From positions 1,020,001 to 1,052,000 of the forward strand of contig NC_007614.1 of NCBI RefSeq assembly GCF_000196355.1: a DNA stretch of 32,000 nucleotides, given 5' to 3'. The DNA comes from Nitrosospira multiformis ATCC 25196. Its GTDB lineage: Bacteria > Pseudomonadota > Gammaproteobacteria > Burkholderiales > Nitrosomonadaceae. The number at the start of each line of letters is the position of its first letter. The first letter of the stretch is position 1. Made by a program: the position numbers and the translations under genes. The notes beneath the pieces were generated by a model. It saw nothing but the letters and a program-made list of their open reading frames with translations. It was not told the origin of the DNA and ran no database searches. Below are positions 7,196 to 30,225 of the stretch, one piece after another.

Positions 7196-7346
7196 TTGTA
7201 GTGTGCACTCCGGTTTTAGCGCCGTTTTAAGGCGATAAAAAGCAAGCGGGAGAGCGCAGACAGGAGGGCCAATGGAAAAGCAAAGGGGAAATTCTGGAGA
7301 GGCCGCCCGGGTTAGACTGAGTGATGGATCAAAGGATAATGTGTGC

Positions 7347-7763
7347 ATGCCAAGCCAGACTTCATCCTACTTCGAGCATGATGCGGACATCGGCATCATC
7401 GGACGTGGCGATACGCTGGAGCAGGCATTCGAGACAGCCGCTCAAGCAGTGTTCGGCATAGTCACGCCCCTGGATAAGGTGCAGCCGCAGACTTCGGTCA
7501 AGATAGAGTTCGAAGAATCAGATCACGAACTGGCGCTGGTGACATGGTTGAATCTGTTGCTGGGAAAGGCGCGTGAACTCGGCATGGTTTTCAGCCGCTT
7601 CCATGTGCAGCGCCGGGAAAACGTGTGGTCCACCGAAGCTCTCGGTGAAAAATGGCGCGAAGTAATGGAGCGTGGAGTAGAAGTCAAAGGTGCGACGCTG
7701 ACCATGCTTTCTGTCAAACAAACCGGAGCAATGTGGGAAGTGCGGTGCATAGTGGATGTGTGA
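7347..7763 (+). CDS. Archease (RtcB activator/chaperone)
   Basis: MPSQTSSYFEHDADIGIIGRGDTLEQAFETAAQAV...VKGATLTMLSV...VRCIVDV. The N-terminal FEHxADIG and C-terminal VKAxT...xxVDV signatures are those of archease. I prefer the internal ATG at 7347 over the track start at 7272. Confidence 0.85.
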   Translation: MPSQTSSYFEHDADIGIIGRGDTLEQAFETAAQAVFGIVTPLDKVQPQTSVKIEFEESDHELALVTWLNLLLGKARELGMVFSRFHVQRRENVWSTEALGEKWREVMERGVEVKGATLTMLSVKQTGAMWEVRCIVDV

Positions 7764-7802
7764 GATCATATAAATTGAACGATAGGAACGGCAGGAGGTG
7801 AC

Positions 7803-9230
7803 ATGAATCTGGAGCGCCTACGTCAACTGCAACCCTGCCTGTGGACATTGCCGCGCGCACCGGGCGAAGAACGCGCGCAGGTCCTCCTGTATGGCAGCGC
7901 GCCCTTGCTCGTCAGCATGGACGACAAGGTACTCGAGCAGATCGCCAACGTTGCTTCCCTGCCGGGGCTGGTTGGAGCGGCAATGACCATGCCGGATGCG
8001 CATTGGGGATATGGTTTTCCCATAGGGGGTGTTGCTGCTTTCGATGCTGAGCAGGGGGGGGTGATTTCCGCAGGCGGGGTCGGCTTCGATATTTCGTGCG
8101 GCATACGCTGTCTGCGCAGCAATCTGAATCTGGAGGATGCGGTAGAGCATTTTCCCCAGCTCGGAAAAGCCTTGTTCCGCGCTATCCCTGCTGGAGTGGG
8201 CGAGGAGGGCGAGATCAAGCTGAACCCGGAGCAGCTCGACCAGGTGATGCACGGCGGTGCACACTGGGCGGTACAGCAAGGCTACGGCACTCCAGCAGAT
8301 CTGGATTATGTTGAAGAACAGGGGCGGGTAGCAGGAGCGATCCCGGAAAACGTATCCGAACTTGCCAAAAAGCGCCAGCGCGGCGAGATGGGCACGCTCG
8401 GCTCAGGCAATCATTACCTGGAAGTACAGGTGGTGGACCGCATCTTCGATCCTGGCGTCGCGCTGGCGCTTGGCCTGCATGAAGGACAAATCCTGATTTC
8501 GATACATTGCGGTTCGCGTGGGCTGGGGCACCAGATCGGTACCGATTATCTGGTGCTATTGGCAAAAGCAGCCAGCCGCTCGGGCATTCATTTACCCGAT
8601 CGTGAACTCGCTTGCGCGCCTGTCAAATCCCCCGAAGGCCAGCAATATATCGGCGCGATGAATGCTGCGATCAATTGCGCGCTTGCCAACCGGCAAATCC
8701 TGACGCATCTTACGCGCTCCGTATTTACGGAAATTTATCCCCAGGCCGAGCTTGAAACCTTGTTTGATGTTTCGCACAATACCTGCAAGGCCGAAACCCA
8801 TCAGATCGACGGTGAATCGAGGTTGCTGTATGTGCACCGCAAGGGCGCTACACGCGCATTCGGCCCGGGCCACCCCATGCTGCCGGAACGCTACCGCCAG
8901 GTAGGACAACCCGTCGTTATCGGTGGAAGCATGGGAACAGGCTCCTACATTCTCGTTGGTGACAGCGAAAATCCCGCCTTCGCTTCTTCAAGCCACGGTG
9001 CAGGCCGGGCCATGAGCCGGCACCAGGCACTCGCGCGATGGAAAGGACGTGCGCTGGTGGACGAGTTGGCGCAACAAGGTATTCTGATCCATACCCGCTC
9101 CATGCGAGGTGTGGCGGAAGAAGCCCCGGGCGCCTATAAGGATGTCGATCTGGTGGCGGAGGCCACGGAAGAAGCCGGGCTCGCCCGGCGCGTCGCGTTT
9201 CTCCGACCCAAAGTCTGCGTTAAGGGTTAA
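7803..9230 (+). CDS. rtcB: RNA 3'-phosphate ligase RtcB (long, archaeal/eukaryal-like form)
   Basis: 475 aa carrying MPDAHWGYGFPIGGVAAF, GGVGFDISCG, GSGNHYLEVQ, HCGSRGLGHQ, SSSHGAGR and a C-terminal VCVKG. These are the RtcB metal-binding and His-GMP motifs. Confidence 0.95.
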   Translation: MNLERLRQLQPCLWTLPRAPGEERAQVLLYGSAPLLVSMDDKVLEQIANVASLPGLVGAAMTMPDAHWGYGFPIGGVAAFDAEQGGVISAGGVGFDISCGIRCLRSNLNLEDAVEHFPQLGKALFRAIPAGVGEEGEIKLNPEQLDQVMHGGAHWAVQQGYGTPADLDYVEEQGRVAGAIPENVSELAKKRQRGEMGTLGSGNHYLEVQVVDRIFDPGVALALGLHEGQILISIHCGSRGLGHQIGTDYLVLLAKAASRSGIHLPDRELACAPVKSPEGQQYIGAMNAAINCALANRQILTHLTRSVFTEIYPQAELETLFDVSHNTCKAETHQIDGESRLLYVHRKGATRAFGPGHPMLPERYRQVGQPVVIGGSMGTGSYILVGDSENPAFASSSHGAGRAMSRHQALARWKGRALVDELAQQGILIHTRSMRGVAEEAPGAYKDVDLVAEATEEAGLARRVAFLRPKVCVKG

Positions 9231-9890: not shown

Positions 9891-10478
9891 ATGAAATTGC
9901 AACTTCAGATCACCACACGCGATATTCCCCATTCTGACGCACTGGAAAGCCATATTCGGCAAAAAGCGGAAAAGCTCGAGACTTTTTATCCCCAGATCAT
10001 GGGGTGCAGGATAGTCGTCGAGGTTCCTCACAAACACAAACACCAGGGCAACCTGTTCAATGTGCGGCTGGACATCACAGTGCCGGGAAAGGAGCTTGTG
10101 GTGACCCGTGAACCGAACGAGGATGTGTACGTTGCGCTGCGCGATGCATTCGACGCCGCAAAGCGTCAGCTCGAAGACTACGGACGGCGCCAGCGCGGTG
10201 AAGTCAAGGCGCATGCTCCCGTCCTGCATGGAAAGGTGGTACGGCTGATGCCGGAGGAAGGCTATGGTTTCGTCGAAACTTCGAGTGGACAGGAGTTGTA
10301 CTTTCATCGCGAAAATCTTGCCAACAATAACTTTGAGCAATTGGAAGAAGGAAGCGAGGTGCAGTTCCTCGAAGATATCGGCAGTGAAGGTTTTCAGGCA
10401 AAGCGCGTCAGTACAGGCAAGCGTCAGGTAGAAGAACCCGAAGAAGCAGAGCCGCGCTTGACAGGTTCGGCGGATTAG
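9891..10478 (+). CDS. HPF/RaiA-type ribosome hibernation domain fused to a C-terminal cold-shock (CSD/S1-like) domain
   Basis: The N-terminal ~100 aa, MKLQLQITTRDIPHSDALESHIRQKAEKLETFY...VYVALRDAFDAAKRQLEDY, match the S30EA/HPF fold pattern. The C-terminal HGKVVRLMPEEGYGFVETSSGQELYFHRENL...GSEVQFLEDIGSEGFQAKRV has the RNP1-like GYGF and YFHR motifs of cold-shock domains. Confidence 0.8.
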   Translation: MKLQLQITTRDIPHSDALESHIRQKAEKLETFYPQIMGCRIVVEVPHKHKHQGNLFNVRLDITVPGKELVVTREPNEDVYVALRDAFDAAKRQLEDYGRRQRGEVKAHAPVLHGKVVRLMPEEGYGFVETSSGQELYFHRENLANNNFEQLEEGSEVQFLEDIGSEGFQAKRVSTGKRQVEEPEEAEPRLTGSAD

Positions 10479-12569: not shown

Positions 12570-13274
12570 TCATGCAACTGCCTCGTTGAGGGTGCCCGCC
12601 AGCAGGCTGCGTAACGCACGCCACCGCCAGCCGCCCTTGAGAATATGCTTCTGGTTGACCTCCAGTTCGATGCCGACGTAAGCATTGACAGGAAATCGGC
12701 GGCGCAGGTAGGTGGGGAAACCGTTTGCCGATCCGGTGTAGGGATAGTTGCGGCGTACCCTTAAATCGGGCATGTGGGCGGCAAGGCACACTCGCCAGCG
12801 GGTGCACAGTTCTTGCTCAAGATGGCGTGAGGGATCATAAAGCAGTCCGATATCGGTATTGCGAACTTCCCCCTTCAATTCGGGAGTGAAGCTGTGTGAG
12901 GAGATGTGGATTACCCTCAGGCCGGAGCGAATGGCATCCGCGATGTTCGCTTCCACCCAAGTGCGATAAGGCAAGTAGTGGTTCTTCAGAATCTCCTGGC
13001 GGACGGCGGCAGATGTGTTGCGCGTCGCTTCCGAATAAAGGCGGGGGTGACCGATCGAGCGGTTGAGGTCGATCAGCAGACGGCTTGTTGTAGCGGCGAA
13101 CAATGGCGAGTGCAGTGCCATGGCAAGTTTTTTAGCCAAGCCCAAAGCGCCGCTGTCATAGCCCCGGTGGCTGTGCAACAAATGCTCGTAGCCTTCGAAC
13201 AGCGGACGGTAGCGCGGTGGCATGCGGTTACCCCCATGTTCACAACTGATTAAAAAATGAATATTCGTCGGCAT
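12570..13274 (-). CDS. N-formylglutamate amidohydrolase (FGase) family protein
   Basis: 234 aa. FLISCEHGGNRMP...HSHRGYDSGA...IHISSHSFTP...GLLYDP...RNYPYTG shows the FGase-fold metal and substrate motifs (CEHxG, H..D, SxHSF). Confidence 0.8.
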   Translation of the reverse strand: MPTNIHFLISCEHGGNRMPPRYRPLFEGYEHLLHSHRGYDSGALGLAKKLAMALHSPLFAATTSRLLIDLNRSIGHPRLYSEATRNTSAAVRQEILKNHYLPYRTWVEANIADAIRSGLRVIHISSHSFTPELKGEVRNTDIGLLYDPSRHLEQELCTRWRVCLAAHMPDLRVRRNYPYTGSANGFPTYLRRRFPVNAYVGIELEVNQKHILKGGWRWRALRSLLAGTLNEAVA

Positions 13275-13304
13275 TCTGTTGAAGTCATATGCAACTCGTT
13301 CAAT

Positions 13305-14543
13305 TCATTTCAGAAACATGCGATTTTCGTCCAGACAATCGCACAGCTCGCGGTAGACCGTCTCCAACCGTCTCCTGCTGAAGTCGGAACCGATCGCATT
13401 CAGGATGCGGCGCGCAAGCGAGCCCTCTCTTAAAATGGTTTGCAGCGCTTCTCGGCAGCTTTTTCCTTGCCTGGATTCGACTGGCATCTCAGACTCGACA
13501 AGATGTCGCCACAGAACGCCAGCCGTGCAATCCGTACCCGGAAAACCCATCAGGCGAAGGTATGCCACATTATCGATTACGGCTTGCTCTGCGTCACGGA
13601 TGCAGGCATGCATGATCCTGACCAATGCTTCCGTGGCGATGGATTGCTGCGCGACCAGCGACGCGTAAGCTTCGCTATAGAGCGCATGCACGATATTGAT
13701 CGCAGCAGCGGCGATGGCAAAGTCAGCACTCGAGCATTCCTGGGTATCGATTACGCGGATCTCGATAGCGTTACGGTCAAAGCGGGGAATTTCCCCGCGC
13801 GCATTGAGCCACTCATGCTGTAGCATTTCTTCCGGATCGAGTGCTGCAATTTCGCGGTACATCGGCGCCAGAATCTTTTCTTCATAGGCGGCGGCACTGG
13901 AGACTGTTTCCGGGATTACCCGGCCGATGGTCGAGGGTACCTTCAGCTGGTGCTCGCAGTAATTTGCCATCCGGAAATCCAGGCAACCAGAATAGCTGCC
14001 TTCGGCGATCGGGGAGCTTGCCGCTACTGCTGGAAGAATGGGCAGCAGCAGCCGCACCGCGGCGTGAAGCCGCGCAAATTCATCGTCGTTTGCGAAAGGC
14101 ATGTTCAGGTGCATGCTTTGCAGGTTGGCCCAGCCATGTCTTCTGCAATCGAAGATATGGTCATAGGCCAGATAGATTTCCGCCTGCTCGTGCGGCCAAA
14201 GGCGGGTCTCCGTGCGGGGATTCATCCAGGGGTGCATGCCGGTCGGCATGAGCCGTGCATTCATCGATTCGAGCACCTTGCTGATCCGCCGGATTTCGCC
14301 TTGAAACGCGACAGACAGGGAGGAAATGTCCGGTTGCGGGTCGATGTTTTTCAGTTCGAGCAGATGCAGCACCAGCTCGTTCGACCATCCCAACTGGCCG
14401 TTCCCGGCCTCGGATGCAAACGCGCCGGTAAGCTTTCGCAGCAACTCGTCGGCAATAGGAACAATCGCGAGCGTATTCCGGTCGACAATCATGTACTCCA
14501 GTTCGATGCCATAACCTGTAAAGGCCGGCAATGCCGCAGTCAT
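13305..14543 (-). CDS. GCS2 / YbdK-like carboxylate-amine ligase (glutamate-cysteine ligase family 2)
   Basis: 412 aa. GYGIELEYMIVD...SNELVLHLLELKN...MHPW...MHLNMPF...IEIRVIDTQEC is the beta-grasp and ATP-site pattern of GCS2 / glutamine-synthetase-like amidoligases. Its start overlaps the upstream peptidase stop (ATGA, 14540-14543). Confidence 0.8.
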   Translation of the reverse strand: MTAALPAFTGYGIELEYMIVDRNTLAIVPIADELLRKLTGAFASEAGNGQLGWSNELVLHLLELKNIDPQPDISSLSVAFQGEIRRISKVLESMNARLMPTGMHPWMNPRTETRLWPHEQAEIYLAYDHIFDCRRHGWANLQSMHLNMPFANDDEFARLHAAVRLLLPILPAVAASSPIAEGSYSGCLDFRMANYCEHQLKVPSTIGRVIPETVSSAAAYEEKILAPMYREIAALDPEEMLQHEWLNARGEIPRFDRNAIEIRVIDTQECSSADFAIAAAAINIVHALYSEAYASLVAQQSIATEALVRIMHACIRDAEQAVIDNVAYLRLMGFPGTDCTAGVLWRHLVESEMPVESRQGKSCREALQTILREGSLARRILNAIGSDFSRRRLETVYRELCDCLDENRMFLK

Positions 14544-15280
14544 GTTGCCTTATCCGGCTCGTCTCGTGTTCGGATGACGAGCAGATTGGCATCATGCGTC
14601 ACGATGCCCAGCAGCACGGAGCACAATACCCGGTCGATGTTGCTCCAGTACTCCTGGGCCGGGCCGTATGGATCGGCGACAAGAACTGTACGCTTCTCGC
14701 GGTCATAACCGGTGAGTACGACAAAATGCCCGGCTGGAAAACCACGCACATCATCCGGTATGTCATTTGGCCCGTATTCCCGGGGAGCGCGGTAAAGGAA
14801 AGTGGAGCTCAGGCCAGTCAGGACAGGCAGGCCGCGACGTAAAAGGCCGTGGATGAGGGATTGCGAGAGGTCTGTGAGACGTAATCGTCCGCCTAAACGC
14901 AGAAACTCCAAATAACCCTCCGTGGCCCGTCGCAATCTCGAGTCCGACTTGATCTCGCGTTGCCGTTGCAGGCGTTCCGCGATATCCATCCCTGATGTGA
15001 ACCAGGTTGGATCGAAAACCATCAGGTTGTACGTATAGATGGTGGCATGGAAACCGTTTCGCAACGCATCGCAACCTAAAAAAACGGCAAAGGTTCCTCC
15101 ACCGTTTTCAAGCTTGTGGGTGCGGTCAATGATGGTGTCCAGCAGTTCCGCCTTGCCGAGATAGCTGTAGATGGCATGCAGGCACGTTGGACCACATGTC
15201 GTTTCATCGGGTTGCGGCAGTGTTTTGACGGGTAAGCGCAGTGTTGTTCTGAGCATGGCAAATGGGCGGCAGAGGCACAT
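14540..15280 (-). CDS. Papain-fold cysteine peptidase, C39-like (possibly DUF3335/RimB-like)
   Basis: LPQPDETTCGPTCLHAIYSYLG supplies the Gln oxyanion residue and catalytic Cys spacing of C39-like peptidases. GHFVVLTGYD...VADP supplies the His and Asp. The start may instead be the internal ATG at 15256 (MLRTT...). Confidence 0.65.
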   Translation of the reverse strand: MCLCRPFAMLRTTLRLPVKTLPQPDETTCGPTCLHAIYSYLGKAELLDTIIDRTHKLENGGGTFAVFLGCDALRNGFHATIYTYNLMVFDPTWFTSGMDIAERLQRQREIKSDSRLRRATEGYLEFLRLGGRLRLTDLSQSLIHGLLRRGLPVLTGLSSTFLYRAPREYGPNDIPDDVRGFPAGHFVVLTGYDREKRTVLVADPYGPAQEYWSNIDRVLCSVLLGIVTHDANLLVIRTRDEPDKAT

Positions 15281-15597
15281 GTCATGACAGCTTCGCTGTA
15301 GCTAAAGAACATGGGGAACATAGGAGCATGGGGATCCGCCATGGGGCTGTTCCCGGGCCGGCCTTGTTCGAAGTCCCTCTATAAAGGTTAGGTGATGCGC
15401 TGGAAGAAATCCAGTTCGTGGAGCATGCTCATCAAATGCTCTCTCTACTGGGGGAGAGGAATGGTGAGAGGATGGCAGTCGAAGAATCGAACGCTTTTCA
15501 GCGCAGATTTGTCGAAACCTCGGTTTCCAGTCAGGGGACCTACCCTGGCAGAAGGCACCAATCTGGCGCCGATCTCAATCTCTCCGCGCCTAGTCTT

Positions 15598-15672
15598 TTA
15601 GGCAAGCCAGACGCCAGCGAGATAACCGGAACAGACGGCAGAGCCGATAATAAGAAGATGGCCTTCAGCCAT
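15598..15672 (-). CDS. Candidate 24-aa hydrophobic micro-ORF (MAEGHLLIIGSAVCSGYLAGVWLA)
   Basis: Hand translation. It begins 43 nt downstream of the methyltransferase stop and upstream of the peptidase operon. The SD is only weak (AAGG, 4 nt upstream). It could be a chance ORF. Confidence 0.15.
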   Translation of the reverse strand: MAEGHLLIIGSAVCSGYLAGVWLA

Positions 15673-15714
15673 TTTGCCTTGCCACTTCTTCCGAGAACCT
15701 CGCTTGCCTATCAG

Positions 15715-18366
15715 TCAGGCGGCTGCCGCCTCCTTCTGGACCCAGAACAGATACATGGTATTGAACGTGTCAGGGTTCTCGGTTTCGAATATGTGCCAGC
15801 GGTCGAGATCGGTTTGAGGAACATCCTCCGGAAAGCGCCGCCGATACTGATTAACCGTGCTTTGCCCAATCGAAAATCCGAGGAATATCAAACCAAGCTC
15901 CCGAAGATCTTCCTTGATGTGGGGAAGAGTATAACGATGCTCCTGGACATGGAATAGCATGTCGCGACACTCGCTCAAAGTATAGAAATCCCGTGCGGAT
16001 AAAACCTGACGAAATGTGTCTCCATTTTCTGGCGACATCATCTCCTGGCGACACGTCCTGATGTCTTCGGCAATGGGCTTGTATCCTCTTTGAGCAATAA
16101 AACGTTGGGCAAAAGCCAGGTGCGACCGTGCGTACTCGCTATACAGGCCGATACGCATGAAGCCGCCAGGCCGGAGCAAGGAAAGCAGCTTACGCCACCC
16201 GAGGAGAGGGTCGGAAAGATGGTGTAGAACGCCAACTGCTTCGATCACGTCGAAGAGTTTGCTACCTCTCGCCGCTATGCTCTCAGAATCGAGGTTCAGG
16301 ATGTCTGCCTGCGCGTATTCGATATTCCGTACGCACAACTCATCAGTCTTCCTTTTGGCATAACAGAGCGATCTTGAACTAAGATCGACAGCAAGAACAT
16401 TCGCATTCTTGAATCGCTGCGCGGCGGCAATGGCATGCCGGCCGGTTCCGCATCCCGCGACCAGAACCTCGATCGCGTCTTTGACACTTTCATTCCGATG
16501 TCCACGACTGGCAGACGATTCAAATCGCGCATAAGGGAAGCGGCTACTCAGGTAGCGGTCCACTAATTCGCTACCGGGCCGTAACGGAACCTTGATCCAT
16601 CTCGGATAAGGATTCTCTTCATACTGATTACGCACACGGCATGAAGTATCGTCTACGATGGCTGTCAGGGAAGGAAGGTGGGACAGATTCCGCTCTTCCT
16701 TCAGCGGCTCTTGCACCTGTTGCAAGAGCAGTGCTGCTATCGGGTCAGGCCAGGAATGGTCGAGAAGTCGTTCAGCAAATGGCAACGAACGGAGCGGAAA
16801 ATAAGCAGCCGCCGCTGCAAGCGATAGCGGGTGGATGGTTCCGTTGGCTTGCAGTGCGGCGGTGACTTGTTCCTTCAACTTCAGCGCCTGCTCATATTCC
16901 TCTGCCGAATATGCGAAAACATATTCGTTGATGAAGCATTGCCGCGCCAGTGCGCACCAAAATAAATCCCCTTCCTCCTGCCACTCCCGGCCATCTCCTC
17001 GTACCTTGCCGGCCCCATTTTCTTCGGCTATGGCTATTTGCAGAAGGCAATAGCGCAGCGAGGTCAAAAACTGTTCAAGTTCAACATCGCAAACAGGAGT
17101 ATTTTCCATCAAAGCCCGCAGCAGCTCATTATTGAACACTGCAGCAAAGCCGGCTTTGCTTGATTCAGATTTATCAAAAAGCTTCTGGCACGACATCCCG
17201 CCAGCCTGCGCTGTCTTCATCCCGTCGAGATGCCCACGTATGGCACAGTCTCTCTTGATCAGCGAAACAGCGGGGTTTCCAAAATCGTCTGGCTGGCCCC
17301 ATGTTTCGGATATGGCTCGAACAAGGAGAGAATGAAGGCGAGGTATGTCATGATCGCAGTAAAAATTCGCGATGCAATCTGTAAAATTCCTCTTTATATC
17401 GGAGTCATCGCAAAGTTCAAGTGCATCCCAGTAATCGATTACGGCATTGTCAGCCTTATGCTGTTGCCACAGCACATATGCACGATTGCTATAGGCCCGC
17501 GCATATCCAGGGTTCAGCTCAATAGCCCGGCCATAAGCAACTGCTGCTTCATCCAATCTCCCCAGCTCACGCAGCGCGTTTCCCAGATTGTTGAATGCCT
17601 CCGGAAACTGCGGCTTGTACAGGATGGCCTTTCCAAAACTTGATACTGCCTCTTCAAATTTACCTTGTTCCACGAGGACATTTCCCAGATTGTTGAATGC
17701 CTCTGCAGAATCCGGCTTTAACAGGAGTGCCTTGCGGAAGCTTGATACGGCATTTTCGAGATCCCCCTGCTCTCTATGGACGATGCCGATATTACAGTGC
17801 ATCTCCGCAAGCTGAGGCTGGATGCCGAGAGCCTTTCGATAATTGATCATCGCGTCATCCAGCCTGCCTTGCTCCCTGAGGGCGTTTCCAAGATTGCCAT
17901 AGGCCTCGGCAAAACGAGGCTCAAGTTTCACGGCAGTCCGGTAAGAGGCGATTGCATCATTCAATTTTCCTTGTTGTCTGAGCGTGTTACCAAGGTTGTT
18001 ATGTGCCTCCACGTAGTTGGGCTTGAACCTCAAGGCTCTCTTGATGAGTTCGATACCGATATCGATCCTGCCTGCATCCCGAGCCAGGAGGCCCAGGAAA
18101 TGCAGTGCATCGGGATGATTCGGATCAAGCTGAAGTATGTGTTGATAAATTGCTTCCGCTTGGGACAAATTTCCCCTCTTGTGATGCTCGACAGCGGCTT
18201 GAAGGTACTGCAGGATGGATTGTCGCGGAGACGTGTCGGCGAGTGAGGCTGCCGGGTTCGCTTCCGCGTTCCTTTCGCAGCAGTGCTTGTATTTCTTTCC
18301 GCTTCCACACGGGCATGGTTCATTCCGTCCAATCTTTTTCATGCTTTCAAGTTTTAAGCCAGTCAA
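15715..18366 (-). CDS. SEC-C motif / TPR-repeat / class I SAM-dependent methyltransferase multidomain protein
   Basis: 883 aa. The N-terminus has GRNEPCPCGSGKKYKHCC, a SEC-C zinc knuckle. About eight TPR units follow, with repeated A..Y...L...P....A..NLGN. The C-terminus has VLVAGCGTGRHAIAAA...VLAVDLS...FDVIEAVGVLHHL...LRPGGFM, which are MTase motifs I, II and post-I. Confidence 0.8.
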   Translation of the reverse strand: MTGLKLESMKKIGRNEPCPCGSGKKYKHCCERNAEANPAASLADTSPRQSILQYLQAAVEHHKRGNLSQAEAIYQHILQLDPNHPDALHFLGLLARDAGRIDIGIELIKRALRFKPNYVEAHNNLGNTLRQQGKLNDAIASYRTAVKLEPRFAEAYGNLGNALREQGRLDDAMINYRKALGIQPQLAEMHCNIGIVHREQGDLENAVSSFRKALLLKPDSAEAFNNLGNVLVEQGKFEEAVSSFGKAILYKPQFPEAFNNLGNALRELGRLDEAAVAYGRAIELNPGYARAYSNRAYVLWQQHKADNAVIDYWDALELCDDSDIKRNFTDCIANFYCDHDIPRLHSLLVRAISETWGQPDDFGNPAVSLIKRDCAIRGHLDGMKTAQAGGMSCQKLFDKSESSKAGFAAVFNNELLRALMENTPVCDVELEQFLTSLRYCLLQIAIAEENGAGKVRGDGREWQEEGDLFWCALARQCFINEYVFAYSAEEYEQALKLKEQVTAALQANGTIHPLSLAAAAAYFPLRSLPFAERLLDHSWPDPIAALLLQQVQEPLKEERNLSHLPSLTAIVDDTSCRVRNQYEENPYPRWIKVPLRPGSELVDRYLSSRFPYARFESSASRGHRNESVKDAIEVLVAGCGTGRHAIAAAQRFKNANVLAVDLSSRSLCYAKRKTDELCVRNIEYAQADILNLDSESIAARGSKLFDVIEAVGVLHHLSDPLLGWRKLLSLLRPGGFMRIGLYSEYARSHLAFAQRFIAQRGYKPIAEDIRTCRQEMMSPENGDTFRQVLSARDFYTLSECRDMLFHVQEHRYTLPHIKEDLRELGLIFLGFSIGQSTVNQYRRRFPEDVPQTDLDRWHIFETENPDTFNTMYLFWVQKEAAAA

Positions 18367-23911: not shown

Positions 23912-24370
23912 ATGACTTCTTTTATCTCACCAGCGGCCCGGAAGCCGTTTTCCGCCTCGAACATTCTAGGCGGCAAGCAGATACTCCACACCGATCCACG
24001 TTCGGCAGTCGAGTGGATAGAACTCGTGCGCAGAGGCATTCCCGCCCCGGCGATCGACGCAGTCCTGGGGCTCGTTGACCTGCGGCAGGGTGAACTCTCC
24101 CGCGCGCTGGATATTCCGGAGCGCACGCTGGTGCGACGAAAAAAGGAAGGAGTGCTCAACTGCGAGGAATCCGGCAAATTGCTGCGCCTGGCGCGGGTTG
24201 TTGAACGTGCCGGCGAGGTGTTTGAGGACGGATCCCTGGCGCTGGACTGGATCAAGTCACCCAACGCCAGCCTGGGCGGCGCCACCCCCCTGTCCATGCT
24301 GGATACTGATCTTGGCGCCGATTCAGTGATGACTATTCTTGGTCGGATCGAGCACGGTATTTTCACTTGA
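23912..24370 (+). CDS. Xre/ParS/MbcA-type antitoxin (DUF2384 toxin-binding domain)
   Basis: ...LSRALDIPERTLVRRKKEG.LN.EESGKLLRLARVVERAGEVFED...ALDWIKSPNASLGGATPLSMLDTDLGADSVMTILGRIEHGIF is the canonical DUF2384 C-terminus. Its stop overlaps the start of the RES gene (TTGA). I prefer the ATG at 23912. Confidence 0.85.
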   Translation: MTSFISPAARKPFSASNILGGKQILHTDPRSAVEWIELVRRGIPAPAIDAVLGLVDLRQGELSRALDIPERTLVRRKKEGVLNCEESGKLLRLARVVERAGEVFEDGSLALDWIKSPNASLGGATPLSMLDTDLGADSVMTILGRIEHGIFT

Positions 24371-24846
24371 AGTTGACGGTGTGGCGTATCGTCACACACC
24401 GCTTCGCCGCTTCTGCATTTTCCGGCGAGGGTGCGCGGCTGTTCGGCGGCCGCTGGAATCTCAAGGGCGAGCCGGTAGTGTACACGGCGCAGAGCAGGTC
24501 ACTCGCCTTTCTCGAAATGCTCGTCCAGGACGAGCCGCTGCGCGCCAATTATCTCCTGATCCCCGCGGAAATTCCTGGCGATATCCCCAGACTGGAAATC
24601 GATGCCGGACAGCTCCCGGAGAACTGGCGAACTCTCGAGAGCCGTAAAAACCTCGAGGAAATCGGCAGCCGGTGGCTGCGTGATGCCAGATACTGCGTAA
24701 TGGATGTTCCCAGCGTTGTAATTCCCGCTGAGCGAAACCTGCTGCTCAACCCGGCACACCCCGATTTTCGCAGAATCCGGATAGGTCAACCGGAAAACCT
24801 CAAGAGCGATCTGCGGCTACTGCGGAATCTATCCGCAGCAAAGTGA
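24367..24846 (+). CDS. RES-domain toxin (NAD+-targeting ParT/MbcT-like)
   Basis: VWRIV...FSGEGARLFGGRWNLKGEPVVYTAQSRSLAFLEMLV supplies the R...E...S residues of the RES domain. The start is a TTG overlapping the antitoxin stop. Confidence 0.85.
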   Translation: MKLTVWRIVTHRFAASAFSGEGARLFGGRWNLKGEPVVYTAQSRSLAFLEMLVQDEPLRANYLLIPAEIPGDIPRLEIDAGQLPENWRTLESRKNLEEIGSRWLRDARYCVMDVPSVVIPAERNLLLNPAHPDFRRIRIGQPENLKSDLRLLRNLSAAK

Positions 24847-24997
24847 ACAAGGGATATTGCTCGCTGCGGGGTCGATGCAGGAATAGCCGGTTCATCCACT
24901 TCCAGGAACAACTCTACGTGGTCATCCAGGATCGCGCTCGGGGGAAGAGGAATGGTGTAGGTTGCAGTCGCTGCTTCATGTAGTGTTCCTGACGCTC

Positions 24998-25270
24998 CTA
25001 TGGCGATATCGTGCCGAACAGGGTTCCATCCGGCGCGGTGACGCGGATTTCCGCGCGTTTGGGAAGCACGCGCGTACGTACTTCAACCCGGACCTTTTCA
25101 TTGCCGGAAACCGGGCGCGGAAGCGTGAGTTCGATCACGCCCTGTGGCACCTCGATCTGCGCAAAAGCGCCATTTCCCAGTATGGACGAGAATCCCAGTA
25201 TGGACGAGAATATCAGAACGGCAATTACCGTGGCGAAGCGTAGCTGCCATCTGCATTTCGCGGCAGTCAA
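24998..25270 (-). CDS. Small secreted protein of unknown function, translationally coupled to tyrosinase
   Basis: 90 aa. The TTG start overlaps the tyrosinase TGA (TTGA). The signal peptide is convincing: K/R-rich n-region, hydrophobic core and an AFA-Q cleavage site. The mature part is beta-rich (IEVPQGVIELTLPRPVSGNEKVRVEVRTRVL...). I recognise no family. Confidence 0.55.
   Translation of the reverse strand: MTAAKCRWQLRFATVIAVLIFSSILGFSSILGNGAFAQIEVPQGVIELTLPRPVSGNEKVRVEVRTRVLPKRAEIRVTAPDGTLFGTISP
25186..25221. repeat. Perfect 18-bp tandem duplication (CCCAGTATGGACGAGAAT x2)
   Basis: Read directly from the sequence. It is in frame and duplicates FSSILG within the signal-peptide core of the small secreted protein. 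Confidence 0.95.
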
Positions 25271-26967
25271 TGGGCCTCCACAACAATGGAAAGTACCTCC
25301 GCTTTCGGTTCCGTGCCAGGGGCATGTCTTGCCATCGGTACTCCCGGTTTTACCATTCGCTCCGAAACAATCCGGATATTCAACGCCCCGCTGTCTGTAA
25401 GCTGCGCGTTCTGCCGCATTGCCTCGATCGTGCCCGATAAAGGCACGGTAAAGGTAACCGGAGCCTGTATGGTGTGATGACCGAACATCGAGAGCGTACC
25501 GACGTAGTGAGGACTGGAGGGGTCCGTTCGACTGTTCCCGTCATCCACCATCACGGCAAAATCATGATGGTGCGCCAGCGGCGGCAGCGCCAGGGTGATC
25601 TTTGCATACAATCGCGGCGTTTCCGCCTGTGCGCGCAAGCCAAGCAGCGGAGACGGAAGTGTCACGACCGCGCTTGCCGCCTGCTCCCCGCTCACCACGG
25701 AACGGGTGATCTGGGCCCGGGTGCTCTCGGAGGGTACCGCTGCGCCCAGCAGTGAGGCGAACATGGGAGGCGCCACCACTTCCTCCCCGGAGCCGGGCTC
25801 ATAATCGTAATTGAAATCCCCGATAGCCGCGTAGTCCCCGGCGGTTCTTTTCTTCGCCGGCTTTCCCTTTGCATCGACAAAGAAAAGAAACGGTTCCCTC
25901 GACCAGGCGTCGAAATCCGCGCCTTCGGGCAAGGCAGGATATCCCCTCGCCAACTGCTTCCGGGTCCATACATCCCAAAGCCGATCGATATTCGCATGGT
26001 GCAGAAAAAAAAGCGGGTCGACAGGCGATAGATTGGCCTGCATGAAGCCGCCGTTGTTGGTGGTGTTGCCATTGGGGTCGGTAAAGATGCCGCCGACGCA
26101 GTTGTGCACCCTGTTGTGCGGCTGTCCTTCCAGCACGCCAAATCCGGTGAGGGCACTGTGACCAAGGGTCTTTGGGCTGGCAAACGTGAGGAAATCGCGA
26201 GGGGCCAGCGCGTCCAGCAATGTTTGCAGGGAGACGGCCTTCGTTGTTTTTCCATCGAGCTCCGGCTTTTCCCGGGTCGTGCCGCGCGCCTGTTTCAGAT
26301 CGAAAAAAAAGCGGCCTCTCGGATCGTTTAGCATATCGAACCACAGATCCTCGGGGGAGCGGATTCCCCGGGCGAGGAGCTGACCATACTGCGTCTCATC
26401 ATCGAATTCACCATTCGGCCCGCAAAAACGCTTCCAGTAATCCGCCCTGGCGATTACCCCGCGAAAGCGGTTCTGAAATTCGCGCGAGTTTGCAATATAG
26501 GCCGGATGAGCGGGGGTGAGCACATCCTCGAACATGACGGCGGGCACGCGTGCCTGAAAGGGACTGTCGGGGTCCGTATTCTCCGTCCAATCCCAGTAGG
26601 GAAGAGCAAACCCTGGGTCGCCGCTGAGCTCACGGCAAATCTGCTCGAACCAGCCGATATAGCCGCGGTGCCAGACCAGAAACCACCAGTTGCCGTGCGG
26701 GCAATCCATCGTGTGAGTGAGCGCGATGCGATACCAGTTGCGAGGGTCTTCCGGCGGGAGCTTGAGCATCCTGGCGATAGCCCTCTTGTAGCTTTCGATG
26801 GCGCGCTTTGCCCCAGGGTTCAGAACGTTCAAACGCCGATACTTTGCTTTCCCTTGTGCCTGGGCTCCGAAGGGCAGGGCAGAAGCGCCGATGGCGGCGG
26901 TGGTCGCCGCCGCAGCTTTCAGGAATGTGCGGCGGGACATGGTGGATGAGAACAATTTTGGCTGCAT
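25267..26967 (-). CDS. Tat-exported tyrosinase / polyphenol oxidase (type-3 copper) with a C-terminal extension
   Basis: 566 aa. The twin-arginine signal is MSRRTFLKAAAATTAAIGA. CuA is HGNWWFLVWHRGYIGWFE...LPYWDW. CuB is PHNRVHNCVGG...FFLHHANIDRLW. About 190 further aa may form a lid domain. The start is 26967 or 26940. Confidence 0.9.
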   Translation of the reverse strand: MQPKLFSSTMSRRTFLKAAAATTAAIGASALPFGAQAQGKAKYRRLNVLNPGAKRAIESYKRAIARMLKLPPEDPRNWYRIALTHTMDCPHGNWWFLVWHRGYIGWFEQICRELSGDPGFALPYWDWTENTDPDSPFQARVPAVMFEDVLTPAHPAYIANSREFQNRFRGVIARADYWKRFCGPNGEFDDETQYGQLLARGIRSPEDLWFDMLNDPRGRFFFDLKQARGTTREKPELDGKTTKAVSLQTLLDALAPRDFLTFASPKTLGHSALTGFGVLEGQPHNRVHNCVGGIFTDPNGNTTNNGGFMQANLSPVDPLFFLHHANIDRLWDVWTRKQLARGYPALPEGADFDAWSREPFLFFVDAKGKPAKKRTAGDYAAIGDFNYDYEPGSGEEVVAPPMFASLLGAAVPSESTRAQITRSVVSGEQAASAVVTLPSPLLGLRAQAETPRLYAKITLALPPLAHHHDFAVMVDDGNSRTDPSSPHYVGTLSMFGHHTIQAPVTFTVPLSGTIEAMRQNAQLTDSGALNIRIVSERMVKPGVPMARHAPGTEPKAEVLSIVVEAH

Positions 26968-26998
26968 GGATTAAACCCTGTTTATGGTTATCGATTCT

Positions 26999-27034
26999 GG
27001 ATAAAGCTGAACGGATAAAGTCGGATGGATAAAG
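26999..27034. repeat. Three phased direct repeats GGATAAAG at an exact 14-bp period upstream of tyrosinase
   Basis: Copies lie at 26999-27006, 27013-27020 and 27027-27034. On the gene strand they read CTTTATCC, 32-67 bp upstream of the tyrosinase ORF start. Confidence 0.8.
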
Positions 27035-27425
27035 CTTGACGGGACGGCGGGCATGGGGCACGCAATTTCCCGGAAATGAGAAGTGACGGGAGTTAAAAGA
27101 AACTTTCCGAAAGAATCTTTCTTTCAGCCATGCGGTTCAGCCTCCTGCCTCGTCCCGCTCAGGCATTTGGCATGGCCGCAAAGAATCAGGATTAGATAAC
27201 CAAATGGAAGCCAGGAGTAGCTGTAAAATCTTACAGGTAGCGGTTCGTGTTGGCGGAGTGTAGTTAGGGGAGACGATATTCCGCTCGTGGAATGAAACTC
27301 TCCGGGAAGCGGGAGCAGCGGATAGCGGTGCGGGAATCGGAAGTCAGCTCATATCCAATAACAGCTCGTTCTCCTGCCACAATCTTGATCAGCGCAGAAA
27401 ACTCAAGCCCAGACACGAGCTTAGA

Positions 27426-27459
27426 GAGTTATCAACAGAGCTATCCACGAGCTATCCAC
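27426..27459. repeat. Three tandem iteron-like / DnaA-box-like units (GAGTTATCAACA GAGCTATCCAC GAGCTATCCAC)
   Basis: Read directly from the sequence. The cores TTATCAACA and CTATCCACG (x2) resemble the DnaA box TTATCCACA, with 1 and 2 mismatches respectively. The 11-bp phasing puts them on one helical face. They lie about 200 bp upstream of the PIN-like gene. Confidence 0.6.
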
Positions 27460-27550
27460 GCCAATCGGGGAAAACTTCATCAGGTGTTAAGTTTCGGGGG
27501 AGCAATAGTTAAGATTAATTTATTCCCAGCGGGGGAAGTAAAAAGGAGGA

Positions 27551-27564
27551 TGGAACCGGTTCCA
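27551..27564. promoter_or_regulatory. Perfect 14-bp palindrome TGGAACCGGTTCCA (operator candidate)
   Basis: Seen in the sequence, 95 bp upstream of the PIN-like ATG. Confidence 0.3.
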
Positions 27565-27658
27565 GTTCACATTCAGGGGCCTCATACTGATATATAAGAG
27601 ATGGGCTGGTAATGCGTGCGTTACCCCTGTTTTGTACCAGCACTTAACTGGAACAAAT

Positions 27659-28624
27659 ATGAAAGTTTTTATCGATACAAATATTCTCCTAGACATTTAT
27701 CATCTATCCGGGCCTGACCTTGAGGAACTCCGAAAACTCAAGAAGATGGTTGAAAAGGGTAAGGTCGAATTGCTTGTGTCCATGCAGGTTATTGACGAGT
27801 TCTGGCGAAACCGAGAGCGGGTCATTGCGGACGCTATGCGGAAATTTCGTGAGTCAAAAGCTTCGGCACAAATTCCCAACATCATTCGAATCTATCCTGA
27901 GGCCAAGGAACTAAAGGAAGCGGTTGATAAGGTGAACGAAGTCGTCAAACAGCTTGCAGCTAAGGCAAGGGTAGACATTGAAGCCGATACCTTAAAATCC
28001 GATGAGGTAATAAGAGAGATATTTTCTGCCATCAAAGTTGGCGCGGTGAGCCCATCCCTTATAGAACAGGCACAATTGCGCTCCAAAGTTGGAAACCCTC
28101 CCGGGAAGAAAGACAGCCTTGGAGACGCCATTAATTGGGAGTGGCTCCTCGAACAGGAAATCGAATTCTGGGACGATGAGCTTATTATTATCAGCGCCGA
28201 TGGGGACTACGAGTCAGAATTGTCCAAAGGAAAGCCTAAAGAGTATTTGCTGAGGGAATGGAACGAAAAGAATACGAGCTGTGAACTCAAACTGGAGAAG
28301 TCGCTCGCGGATTTCTTTAAAGCCAAATTCCCTGACATTCAACTGGCGGAGGAAATCGATAAGATTGAAGCCATAGAACGGCTTGAGGAATCCGGCTCTT
28401 TCGCTGCCACGCATAGAGCAGTTTCGACGCTTGATGATTACGATGATTTCAAAGATTCAGAAGTCAAGCGCATCATCAAAGCTTATTTAGACAACAATCA
28501 GATTCGAAGGATTCTTGAAGATGAAGATGTCAGAGAGTTTGCTTTGAAGGTGGTCGGATTAGCCAAGTCAGAAGAAACAATTGGTCTTTCAAAGTCGTTG
28601 AAGGAGCTTCTTGAGCCGCTTTAA
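27659..28624 (+). CDS. Stand-alone PIN-like (DUF4935-type) nuclease-domain protein with an unknown C-terminal helical region
   Basis: MKVFIDTNILLDIYHLSG...VIDEFWRNRERVI...KDSLGDAINWEWLLE...IIISADGDY places acidic residues in a PIN-like order (D, E, D, D). The last ~110 aa are acidic and helical with no recognisable family. I prefer the ATG at 27659 over the TTG at 27632. Confidence 0.65.
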   Translation: MKVFIDTNILLDIYHLSGPDLEELRKLKKMVEKGKVELLVSMQVIDEFWRNRERVIADAMRKFRESKASAQIPNIIRIYPEAKELKEAVDKVNEVVKQLAAKARVDIEADTLKSDEVIREIFSAIKVGAVSPSLIEQAQLRSKVGNPPGKKDSLGDAINWEWLLEQEIEFWDDELIIISADGDYESELSKGKPKEYLLREWNEKNTSCELKLEKSLADFFKAKFPDIQLAEEIDKIEAIERLEESGSFAATHRAVSTLDDYDDFKDSEVKRIIKAYLDNNQIRRILEDEDVREFALKVVGLAKSEETIGLSKSLKELLEPL

Positions 28625-28855
28625 GATGAAAATCAACTTTCACCTTCAGCCTAATTGTGCGCTGCATGTAGAAGCTAGCTTCCTGCCGGTATTGTTCCCC
28701 ATTTTTCTAATGTTCCGGTCGATTGTGCGAGCGTCGAACCGTGCTTAATCTCGCATTTCCAGGTGGACTTCAATATCACCCGAGTACAGGACTTAGAGCC
28801 GCCGAATGCTGCTCCCTTTCACGGTATTAGGGGACTTTCAAGAAAGCAGTTTCAA

Positions 28856-28878
28856 TTGGCGGAGAGAGAGACCGCCAA
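28856..28878. other. Hairpin TTGGCGG-(agagagaga)-CCGCCAA upstream of the integrase
   Basis: A 7-bp perfect stem with a 9-nt purine loop. No U-tract follows. Confidence 0.3.
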
Positions 28879-28949
28879 CCTACCGTTTCATGGTGTCTCA
28901 GAAATTCCTATAAGACTTGGTTTTACTTATCTTTTTTTAAATACTTGCC

Positions 28950-28978
28950 TTGACGTGTTCCAGGTTGTCCCATAGTAT
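28950..28978 (+). promoter_or_regulatory. Sigma70-like promoter candidate for the integrase
   Basis: TTGACG (28950-28955), a 17-nt spacer, then TAGTAT (28973-28978). It lies 24 nt upstream of the first ATG. Confidence 0.4.
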
Positions 28979-29001
28979 CCCAGTCTCATATGTAGGTAGA
29001 A

Positions 29002-30225
29002 ATGGGGGTAGAAATGAGACGCCAAACGTGTAGGTTATCAGCAAAGGAAGTGTCTAACAAGAAGAAGCCAGGTTACTACTGCGATGGTGCGGGGCTCTAT
29101 CTGCAGATAAGTGACTCGGGCAGCAAGTCGTGGATATTCCGCTATACCTTGAACGGCAAGAACCGGCACATGGGTTTAGGGCCAGTTCATACTGTCTCCC
29201 TGGCTGATGCACGCACTGCCGCCGTTCAATGCCGGCAATTGCTGCTTCGCAAAATGGATCCTATTACAGCACGTGATGCTGAGCACGCACAGCAGTCACT
29301 TGAAGCTGCAAGGTCAATGACTTTTTCCGAGTGTGCTGCTCTCTATATTAAAGCCCATCGCTCCAGCTGGAAGAACACAAAACATGCCGATCAGTGGACA
29401 AATACCATCAAGACTTATTGCGGACCTGTCATAGGCCCGTTATCCGTCCAGGATGTCGATACGAAGCTGATTATGAAGGTGCTAGACCCGATCTGGGAAC
29501 AGAAACCGGAGACAGCCAGCCGATTACGCGGGCGTATAGAATCTGTACTTGATTGGGCTACAGTCAGAGGTTATCGAGAAGGAGATAATCCCGCCCGATG
29601 GCGAGGGTATCTTAGTCATGCGCTACCCTCGCTTAAAAAGAAACTCAGGGTAAAACATCATCCGGCCTTACAGTTCAGCCAGATGGCTGAATTTATGGGA
29701 TTGCTTCGAGCAGAGGAAGGCATTGCTGCAAGAGCACTGGAATTCCTAATTCTCACAGCCGCACGAACTAGTGAGGTTATCGGTGCAAGATGGGAAGAGT
29801 TGGATCTAAAGGCTTCGATCTGGACTATTCCAGGTACGCGCATGAAAGCGGATGACCCGCATCGAGTACCGCTTTCGGGAAGAGCTTTGGAAATTATCTT
29901 GAACTTGGAGAAGATAAAGCAAAGCGACTATGTATTTCCAGGGCAGAAGATCGAAAAGCCGCTAAGCAATAACGCCATGCTTAAGGTACTCGAACGCATG
30001 GGAAGGAATGATATAACCGTACATGGTTTTCGCTCATCATTTCGAGACTGGGCTTCGGAATGCACAAATTTTCCAAGAGACGTATGTGAGATGGCGCTTG
30101 CCCATACGATAAGCAATAAAGCAGAAGCAGCTTATCGTCGAGGAGACTTGTTCGAGAAGCGGAGGGTATTGATGGAAGAGTGGGCGGGATATTGCTACGA
30201 TGGCTCAGCAATTATGTCAAGGTAA
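29002..30225 (+). CDS. int: Tyrosine recombinase / integrase, P4-like (Arm-type DUF4102 N-domain)
   Basis: 407 aa. The N-terminal KPGYYCDGAGLYLQISDSGSKSWIFRY...GLGP...SLADAR is the arm-binding domain. The C-terminal catalytic residues are ...TAARTSEV...HGFRSSFRDW...LAHT...AYRR (R, H-x-x-R, H, Y). The initiation region GGTAGAAATG is duplicated at 28995-29004 and 29007-29016, so the start may be 29002 or 29014. Confidence 0.9.
   Translation: MGVEMRRQTCRLSAKEVSNKKKPGYYCDGAGLYLQISDSGSKSWIFRYTLNGKNRHMGLGPVHTVSLADARTAAVQCRQLLLRKMDPITARDAEHAQQSLEAARSMTFSECAALYIKAHRSSWKNTKHADQWTNTIKTYCGPVIGPLSVQDVDTKLIMKVLDPIWEQKPETASRLRGRIESVLDWATVRGYREGDNPARWRGYLSHALPSLKKKLRVKHHPALQFSQMAEFMGLLRAEEGIAARALEFLILTAARTSEVIGARWEELDLKASIWTIPGTRMKADDPHRVPLSGRALEIILNLEKIKQSDYVFPGQKIEKPLSNNAMLKVLERMGRNDITVHGFRSSFRDWASECTNFPRDVCEMALAHTISNKAEAAYRRGDLFEKRRVLMEEWAGYCYDGSAIMSR

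Follow-up and report, generated by a model that had tools for sequence, protein, structure and literature searches.

A three-gene peptidase, GCS2 ligase and FGase operon of Nitrosospira multiformis, apparently a four-gene amidoligase cassette that has lost its ATP-grasp ligase

Three genes stand in a row on the minus strand of the 32,000-nucleotide stretch of Nitrosospira multiformis DNA that we analysed (the window throughout this article). They encode a C39-like cysteine peptidase, a ligase of the GCS2 family and an amidohydrolase of the FGase family. Comparison with other genomes indicates that this triad is a Nitrosospira-lineage derivative of a four-gene cassette, the missing member of which is an RLAN+RimK-type ATP-grasp ligase. 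Our preferred reading goes one step further, to a derivative by ATP-grasp loss that also works as a cytoplasmic module for making and trimming a glutamate-containing amide or short peptide; to that combined reading we give even chances. Iyer, Abhiman, Burroughs and Aravind reportedly catalogued amidoligase neighbourhoods in Mol Biosyst in 2009, with the arrangement RLAN (PF14401)+RimK / GCS2 / C39-like / FGase among them. Our literature searches found no experimental paper on the cassette.

A sequence-only reading of this DNA had described a triad of genes at 12570–15280 and named their families. We find three minus-strand frames at exactly those coordinates (Table 1), and Pfam bears out each name, with E-values of 1.1e-11 for the peptidase (Peptidase_C39_2, with Peptidase_C39 following at 3e-4), 2.8e-20 for the ligase and 9.6e-22 for the amidohydrolase. 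The three genes form a single operon. Their arrangement is far beyond chance, since gene order is identical in all the related loci examined. The same reading had the whole triad translationally coupled, which holds for half of it: the peptidase and GCS2 genes share an ATGA overlap, and because a 30-nt spacer lies between GCS2 and FGase, strict coupling belongs to the first gene pair only.

Table 1. Features of the three-gene locus, in positions of the window
Feature	Position	Strand	Basis
C39-like (papain-fold) cysteine peptidase, predicted, 246 aa	14540..15280	-	Pfam PF13529
Divergent GCS2-family (glutamine-synthetase-fold) ATP-dependent carboxylate-amine ligase, predicted, 412 aa	13305..14543	-	Pfam PF04107
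FGase-family (N-formylglutamate-amidohydrolase-like) amidohydrolase, predicted, 234 aa	12570..13274	-	Pfam PF05013
ATGA stop/start overlap of peptidase and GCS2; junction without the RLAN+RimK ATP-grasp gene	14540..14543	-	Sequence and junction comparison with four-gene loci
Upstream intergenic region, presumed seat of the promoter of the three-gene operon	15281..15714	-	Consensus and Rfam scans

Elsewhere the order of genes is C39-like peptidase, RLAN+RimK-type ATP-grasp ligase (about 490 aa), GCS2 and then, usually, FGase. Seventy-one other species-level loci, from five or more phyla, were long enough to judge, and in 70 of them the ATP-grasp gene sits between peptidase and GCS2, as it does in the loci of Sulfuricella and Nitrosomonas. 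FGase is the last cassette gene in 48 of 59 loci. The modal gap is -4, the ATGA overlap again, both between peptidase and ATP-grasp and between ATP-grasp and GCS2; such overlaps hint that the products may form a complex. There were at least 593 species-level genome matches. The cassette has carriers in at least about 600 bacterial species, among them ammonia oxidisers, oxidisers of sulfur and iron, denitrifiers and members of the Planctomycetota, Desulfobacterota and Nitrospirota. The idea that amidoligase and peptidase make up a conserved unit is thereby upheld, with order and tight spacing recurring across phyla.

Set beside this cassette, the window has orthologues of the peptidase, GCS2 and FGase genes in the same order and on the same strand, whereas throughout the Nitrosospira/Nitrosovibrio lineage the locus lacks the defining RLAN+RimK gene. 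Against the Sulfuricella copies, which keep order and strand, the peptidase is 74% identical, GCS2 63% and FGase 64%. Over wider comparisons the window GCS2 is 45–83% identical to the GCS2 genes of cassette loci, and the window peptidase matches the first gene at every one of the 80 genome loci compared with 53–93% identity. None of the large open reading frames of the 32-kb window has a RimK or ATP-grasp domain, and none of the best 120 homologues of the RLAN-RimK ATP-grasp protein bears the name Nitrosospira. The three-gene form turned up only in the window, in Nitrosovibrio Nv6, in N. briensis and in Nitrosospira-type metagenome contigs, and a direct peptidase/GCS2 junction is common to them all, the loci L006, L008, L090 and L091 included. 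These junctions point to precise excision of the ATP-grasp gene from the locus in an ancestor of Nitrosospira and Nitrosovibrio, with an ATGA overlap left behind. The deletion is old, because N. briensis has the same one at 65% GCS2 identity. The sequence-only reading had linked the triad to RimK-type ligases, rightly to judge by those 70 loci, each with a RimK-family ligase gene. It had also supposed that GCS2 takes the place of the ATP-grasp enzyme. Here the comparison goes the other way: GCS2 is no stand-in for a RimK-type ligase, because it normally lies beside one.

Other parts of the cassette vary as well. Nitrosomonas communis has variants without FGase, and at loci without FGase we found no substitute hydrolase. 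Peptidase and GCS2 are the invariant core; ATP-grasp and FGase are the losable parts. Clustering of open reading frames of at least 70 aa around some 80 loci gave no conserved fifth gene, just shadow frames and a lineage-restricted NMD3-like gene that lies upstream of the cassette in seven loci of Thiobacillus/Sulfuricella type. A search of 20–90 aa frames in the 800-nt flanks of about 80 loci found no conserved small frame or precursor peptide, and over the same number of loci there was no linked substrate gene or transporter. A role in defence was considered and set aside, PADLOC giving no match.

The peptidase carries LPQPDETTCGPTC and GHFVVLTGYD. Across an alignment of 46 family members C29, H185 and D203 never vary, and Q23, the candidate oxyanion-hole Gln, hardly does. 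An AF2 model (pLDDT 94, pTM 0.90) has C29 beginning helix 29–40, H185 at strand 184–193 and D203 past strand 198–202, with a helical insert of about 50 residues separating the Cys and His halves. The top Foldseek matches were C39 domains, the C39-like structure 3erv, PeiR and the phytochelatin synthase Alr0975 (ranks 11–28), and papain and cathepsin structures matched too. On the strength of this model we confidently predict a peptidase of papain-like (clan CA), C39-type fold with its catalytic residues in canonical positions, in line with the fold and the catalytic Cys and His proposed from the sequence.

The likeness to DUF3335 and RimB-type peptidases that the same reading had suggested fared worse. 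The DUF3335 model (PF11814) does not match the window peptidase at E<=0.1 and gives weak matches in 13 of the 46 family members (best E 4e-4), whereas 45 of them match Peptidase_C39_2 and Peptidase_C39 (PF13529 and PF03412); DUF3335 would be a distant relative at best. RimB is an aspartic endopeptidase of the retropepsin-like kind, a different thing from a papain/C39 fold. The best relatives, by sequence profile as by structure, are the C39 leader peptidase domains of PCAT/ComA type (about 1e-8 against ComA/PCAT1), with which the protein shares the pattern Gln-x5-Cys ... His ... Asp. Unlike them it is a soluble, free-standing protein that exceeds them by about 100 residues, the helical insert included. 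Neither a signal peptide nor a transmembrane segment is predicted in the peptidase, and no signal peptides are predicted for the cassette; we take the peptidase to be cytoplasmic on this prediction. A bacteriocin-leader peptidase was likewise rejected, for across about 80 loci the cassette is never found beside an ABC exporter, a GG-leader peptide gene or a transporter.

The ligase belongs to the Pfam GCS2 superfamily only and falls outside the YbdK and GshA equivalogs. Every NCBIfam model for YbdK or GshA scores far under its cut-off: PRK13515 does best with 51 bits (cut-off 371), and TIGR02050 reaches 46 (cut-off 176). Such scores speak against an ordinary glutamate-cysteine ligase. A GCS2 profile finds plant GCL and YbdK at a distance (E 0.004–0.03). 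The window GCS2 retains all 53 columns that are invariant across 30 orthologues; its structure model, made from a shallow alignment, has a pLDDT of 59, too low to build on.

In the PDB the amidohydrolase matches 2odf (Atu2144), with E 1e-15 from its sequence alone and 3.7e-34 by profile, against 8e-4 by profile for the FGase 2q7s. It keeps the invariant E12-H13, H123 and H127, NCBIfam models do not match it, and no hut genes lie nearby. These comparisons place the protein nearer to the uncharacterised Atu2144 than to a true FGase of HutG type, and we have dropped HutG as its identity.

What might such enzymes do together? Glutathione synthesis follows the logic of a GCS-type ligase paired with an ATP-grasp ligase. 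The GCS and FGase families have known activities on small molecules, primitive phytochelatin synthase forms an acyl-enzyme on glutathione, and C39 domains do so on peptides. In our preferred reading a cytoplasmic module would make and trim a glutamate-containing amide or short peptide, with no ribosomally encoded peptide. GCS2 would spend ATP on activating a carboxylate and then couple it to an amine; by analogy with characterised GCS-family enzymes, that carboxylate would most likely be glutamate's gamma-carboxyl. Where the cassette is complete, its RimK-type ligase would append one or more further alpha-linked residues (compare GshA plus GshB, or the poly-Glu of RimK). The C39-like enzyme may act on the product through an acyl-enzyme at Cys29, cleaving off or transferring a part of it, and the FGase-like enzyme may hydrolyse a bond of N-acyl-glutamate type and release free Glu. 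Nitrosospira, lacking the extension step, would cycle a shorter product of a single ligation. An add/remove cycle on glutamyl amides, as the sequence-only reading had it, is plausible. GCS2 and FGase both stand far from any characterised member, and their chemistry is extrapolated.

We favour a small molecule because neither a conserved fifth gene nor a small open reading frame flanks the cassette, because signal peptides and Rfam and PADLOC matches are absent, and because the GCS and FGase families act on such substrates; the pairing of GCS-type and ATP-grasp ligases mirrors glutathione synthesis, and Alr0975, which forms its acyl-enzyme on glutathione, is among the structural neighbours. The glutathione/phytochelatin pathway shows the same fold logic, in that GCS-type and ATP-grasp ligases go together with a papain-fold Cys enzyme working through an acyl-enzyme. 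There are differences: GCS2 is marginally related to GshA, YbdK and plant GCL, the Phytochelatin Pfam model touches just 3 of the 46 peptidase family members, and Foldseek TM-scores for the peptidase model are about 0.45.

The substrate could instead be a protein. The ligases would then attach Glu or a glutamyl-linked group to some protein whose gene lies elsewhere, at its C-terminus or on a side chain, the C39-like peptidase and FGase would trim or remove it, and Nitrosospira would keep the GCS2-dependent step only. We regard protein or peptide tagging of this kind as a serious possibility, although one we would bet against. RimK acting on ribosomal protein S6, PafA with Pup and LysX on LysW are the models that come to mind. 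Several observations that run against a small molecule are at home here: the closest sequence relatives of the peptidase are C39 domains that cut peptides, the nearest PDB relatives of the cassette ATP-grasp enzyme are the protein-modifying RimK S6-glutamate ligases (E about 1e-7), and the conservation of the peptidase, very high at 53–60% identity across phyla and dN/dS 0.06–0.10 within the Nitrosospira clade, can be accounted for by a conserved macromolecular target at least as readily as by a metabolite. The extra N-terminal RLAN domain of the ATP-grasp enzyme could recognise a macromolecule. It is general knowledge, too, that GS-fold ligases related to GCS2 serve as protein ligases in pupylation, where PafA and Dop pair a ligase acting on the gamma-carboxylate of glutamate with a hydrolase that undoes the bond; there is, however, no Pup-like gene and there are no proteasome genes near the window triad.

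For RimK, an add/remove pairing with a protease is established (PMC11957791, PMC10092738). The RimK-RimB(-RimA) system, which polyglutamylates S6 (RpsF) in Pseudomonas, likewise sets an ATP-dependent glutamate ligase beside a hydrolase that trims its additions. But the window is without any RimK-type gene, rimABK has no GCS2 and no FGase, and the ATP-grasp enzyme of the cassette has its additional RLAN domain and that modest E-value against RimK. A tagging system also sits awkwardly with the neighbourhoods, in which no candidate substrate gene is conserved beside the cassette (about 80 loci; the NMD3-like gene keeps to its seven), and with the small-molecule substrates of characterised FGase and GCS enzymes. 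ATP-grasp or FGase has been lost without decay of the other genes, which is easier to picture for a flexible metabolic route.

A bolder proposal spans both kinds of substrate, and we offer it as speculation that we think rather doubtful. Peptidase and GCS2 would be the minimal core of an uncharacterised, phylum-spanning system of intracellular glutamyl conjugation, yielding either a new glutamate-based peptide (like glutathione/phytochelatin, or like cyanophycin) or a new cycle of protein C-terminal tagging and editing, and Nitrosospira would be a natural 'ATP-grasp knock-out' in which the core works alone. The window itself holds a reduced copy of a system type that could already be predicted. 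An invariant core with a dispensable RimK-type ligase and FGase nonetheless narrows the biochemical search, and three-gene Nitrosospira and FGase-less Nitrosomonas communis are natural comparison strains. Should the cassette turn out to make a new glutamyl peptide or protein tag, the central stress or nitrogen physiology of environmentally important bacteria would have one more pathway.

Could the triad be a relic, three genes decaying since the ATP-grasp loss and useless in N. multiformis? We think this very improbable. In one metagenome contig of Nitrosospira type (L088) at least three frameshifts interrupt GCS2 and one interrupts FGase, as in a relic; the peptidase and the flanking genes there are undamaged, and the frameshifts may be assembly errors of long reads. 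All three open reading frames run unbroken in N. multiformis, N. briensis and Nitrosovibrio Nv6 as well as in two more contigs, at identities down to about 65%, and the invariant catalytic residues are retained. Within the Nitrosospira clade dN/dS is 0.06–0.20 for all three genes (0.13–0.20 for GCS2). The three surviving genes have been under purifying selection since the loss, and these selection data largely refute decay.

Scarcely credible is the remaining account, in which a gamma-glutamylcysteine ligase of the glutathione pathway, a HutG of histidine catabolism and a C39 peptidase for bacteriocin leaders are neighbours by chance: database names suggest as much ('glutamate-cysteine ligase family', 'N-formylglutamate amidohydrolase', 'C39 family peptidase'), but across phyla the genes keep their order and close spacing, GCS2 and FGase lie as far from GshA, YbdK and HutG as described above, and the peptidase is free-standing and predicted cytoplasmic, with no ABC-transporter fusion and no bacteriocin precursor or transporter nearby.

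In the region upstream of the operon a promoter scan gave no sigma-70-like site, an Rfam scan gave no matches there or in the cassette, and no conserved small open reading frame was found. The peptidase has two candidate starts, M1 (15280) and M9 (15256). A terminator-like hairpin at 15672–15658, called by consensus scan only, follows the TPR-methyltransferase gene that lies upstream.

A sequence-only reading had placed a peptidase, a GCS2 ligase and an FGase-family gene at 12570-15280, and three minus-strand open reading frames do fill that interval exactly, with the motifs quoted for the peptidase lying in the 246-aa product. The reading also had the three genes translationally coupled. This holds at the first junction, where the stop codon of the peptidase and the start codon of GCS2 share an ATGA, but not at the second, where a 30-nt spacer separates GCS2 from FGase. 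The downstream border of the triad is a convergent NAPRTase gene. Upstream, a terminator-like hairpin follows the SEC-C/TPR/methyltransferase gene, which N. briensis, Nitrosovibrio Nv6 and three Nitrosospira-type contigs lack at this place and which is therefore an insertion peculiar to the N. multiformis lineage.

Genes of the triad and other features of the window
Feature	Position	Strand	Remarks
Archease and RtcB RNA ligase	7272-9230	+	archease directly 5' of RtcB; universal stress protein gene follows
Ribosomal_S30AE (ribosome hibernation factor domain) fused to cold-shock domain	9891-10478	+	unusual fusion
FGase	12570-13274	-	234 aa; Pfam FGase 9.6e-22
GCS2	13305-14543	-	412 aa; Pfam GCS2 2.8e-20
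C39-like peptidase	14540-15280	-	246 aa; Pfam Peptidase_C39_2 1.1e-11
SEC-C motif, TPR repeats and class-I methyltransferase	15715-18366	-	883 aa; between AAA_33/APH kinase gene and triad
RES-domain toxin, PIN_12 protein, phage-type integrase with Arm DNA-binding domain	24367-30225		
TAT-signal tyrosinase-domain protein	25267-26967	-	

Elsewhere the triad is part of something larger. Sulfuricella, with a peptidase 73% identical, has a run of four genes, in which the peptidase gene is followed by one for a 490-aa RLAN+RimK ATP-grasp protein and then by GCS2 and FGase. The Nitrosomonas communis locus has peptidase, RLAN-RimK and GCS2. Scanning one genome per species with an alignment of the peptidase turned up at least 593 relatives; we retained 80 loci, from Beta- and Gammaproteobacteria, Desulfobacterota, Planctomycetota and Nitrospirota, whose gene content was surveyed by tblastn. 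An ATP-grasp gene sits between peptidase and GCS2 in 70 of the 71 loci of sufficient length, FGase comes after GCS2 in 48 of 59, and the first three genes most commonly overlap by 4 nt. Clustering all ORFs of these loci gave no conserved fifth gene, clustering short ORFs in their flanks gave no conserved precursor-like peptide, and the 11 of 59 loci without FGase held no substitute hydrolase. The constant core of the cassette is peptidase plus GCS2. By protein family, the conserved operon encodes a pair of ATP-dependent amide ligases that differ in fold and a pair of amide hydrolases that likewise differ in fold. The system is predicted to be cytoplasmic; no signal peptide or membrane segment is predicted in the peptidase.

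Some loci have their own peculiarities. Nitrosomonas communis-type loci (L004:9442-10600, L009, L089) keep the first three genes and are missing FGase; in one of them a PhdYeFM antitoxin gene follows the cassette. Only seven loci, all of a Thiobacillus/Sulfuricella-type sub-lineage (L001:7491-7985, for example), have directly upstream of the cassette, on the same strand, a gene for an NMD3-like zinc-ribbon protein of 164 aa, which may be an accessory factor or a substrate; the window has no such gene. P0190, a 410-aa metagenome gene call, joins the C-terminal part of the peptidase to an RLAN domain in one ORF, which may be a peptidase-ATP-grasp fusion occurring in nature or the result of reading through where the two genes overlap.

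The proposal of a papain-like fold with catalytic Cys and His in the peptidase was borne out by a confident AF2 model (pLDDT 94, pTM 0.90), which puts C29, H185, D203 and Q23 at canonical papain positions. Across 46 aligned sequences, with identity down to ~35%, the first three are invariant and Q23 nearly so; D90, W93, R167 and D230 are invariant too. The best Foldseek PDB matches are the PCAT1 and ComA C39 domains, xylellain, the C39-like 3erv, PeiR (an isopeptidase) and Alr0975 (a primitive phytochelatin synthase), with TM-scores of only 0.42-0.53 because of a ~50-residue helical insert in the peptidase. Its sequence profile matches the ComA and PCAT1 C39 domains at ~1e-8. The suggested kinship to DUF3335 fell away, since only 13 of 46 family members match it, and weakly, against 45 of 46 for Peptidase_C39_2 and Peptidase_C39. 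Nor is the protein RimB-type: RimB belongs to the retropepsin-like aspartic proteases (PMC11957791), whereas the window protein has a papain/C39 fold. The window GCS2 falls within its Pfam family but far under every curated YbdK and GshA model cut-off, and its likeness to solved GCL and YbdK structures is marginal. The FGase is much nearer to Atu2144 (2odf, uncharacterised) than to genuine N-formylglutamate amidohydrolase.

The window locus is a deletion derivative of the four-gene cassette. Peptidase runs directly into GCS2, always with overlapping stop and start, in the window, Nitrosovibrio sp. Nv6 (L006), N. briensis (L091), a Nitrosospira MAG (L008) and two Nitrosospira-type metagenome contigs (L088, L090); in L089 (peptidase identity 77%) the ATP-grasp gene is still present. 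Its loss is old, because N. briensis has the same deletion and flanking synteny as the window despite a GCS2 only 65% identical. No Nitrosospira or Nitrosovibrio name occurs among the best 120 matches (at least 71% identity) to the Nitrosomonas ATP-grasp protein, which are named from Nitrosomonas, Sulfuricella and Gallionella. These matches suggest, short of proof, a true absence of the gene. In L088:4748-6730, GCS2 has at least three frameshifts and FGase one, while the surrounding peptidase, AAA_33 kinase and NAPRTase genes show no damage; either the ligase and amidohydrolase genes are decaying in this one lineage or the frameshifts are errors of long-read assembly.

What might the cassette make? 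GCS2 would form an amide of gamma-glutamyl type, the RimK-type enzyme would lengthen it in those loci that have one, and the Cys peptidase and FGase-like enzyme would cut or trim the product. We favour a small molecule or short peptide, giving it roughly an even chance, because a substrate gene is never linked to the cassette, characterised GCS and FGase enzymes use small molecules, the two ligases parallel the GCS and ATP-grasp pairing of glutathione synthesis, and single steps are lost without decay of the others. The main rival, a role in protein tagging and editing, draws on the RimK affinity of the ATP-grasp ligase, the C39 affinity of the peptidase and the latter's very high conservation, and strikes us as possible if rather doubtful. 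Comparisons among members of the three-gene clade give dN/dS values of 0.06-0.10 (peptidase), 0.13-0.20 (GCS2) and 0.14 (FGase), and the residues invariant in each family are all retained; such constraint implies that the remaining genes are functional without an adjacent ATP-grasp gene. That the triad is a decaying remnant, or a set of coincidental neighbours, is essentially excluded.

Comparative genomics by Iyer et al. 2009 reportedly predicted amidoligase-peptidase neighbourhoods. We take the cassette to be of that kind, and the RLAN Pfam family presumably derives from the same work. In the literature searched we found no experimental study of the cassette. Because it has no ATP-grasp gene, which is among the features that define the complete cassette, the window locus is a variant of a kind so far described only computationally. 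The cassette is widespread and uncharacterised; its core can be better defined with the help of the Nitrosospira variant, and the window contributes a reduced copy and no new principle.

As for the rest of the window, archease and RtcB are a known activator-ligase pair. Sulfuricella, Thiobacillus and N. briensis also have the S30AE/cold-shock fusion, or else HPF by itself, in the neighbourhood of the cassette, which looks like lineage synteny with PncA/PncB, Usp and RtcB, not a cassette-wide association. G+C falls from ~0.59 to 0.45-0.49 in the RES/PIN_12/integrase region, lower from ~27000 onward, and a mobile element has probably integrated here. Upstream of the cassette region Nitrosovibrio Nv6 has a tyrosinase and a multicopper oxidase gene, and N. 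briensis a multicopper oxidase gene.
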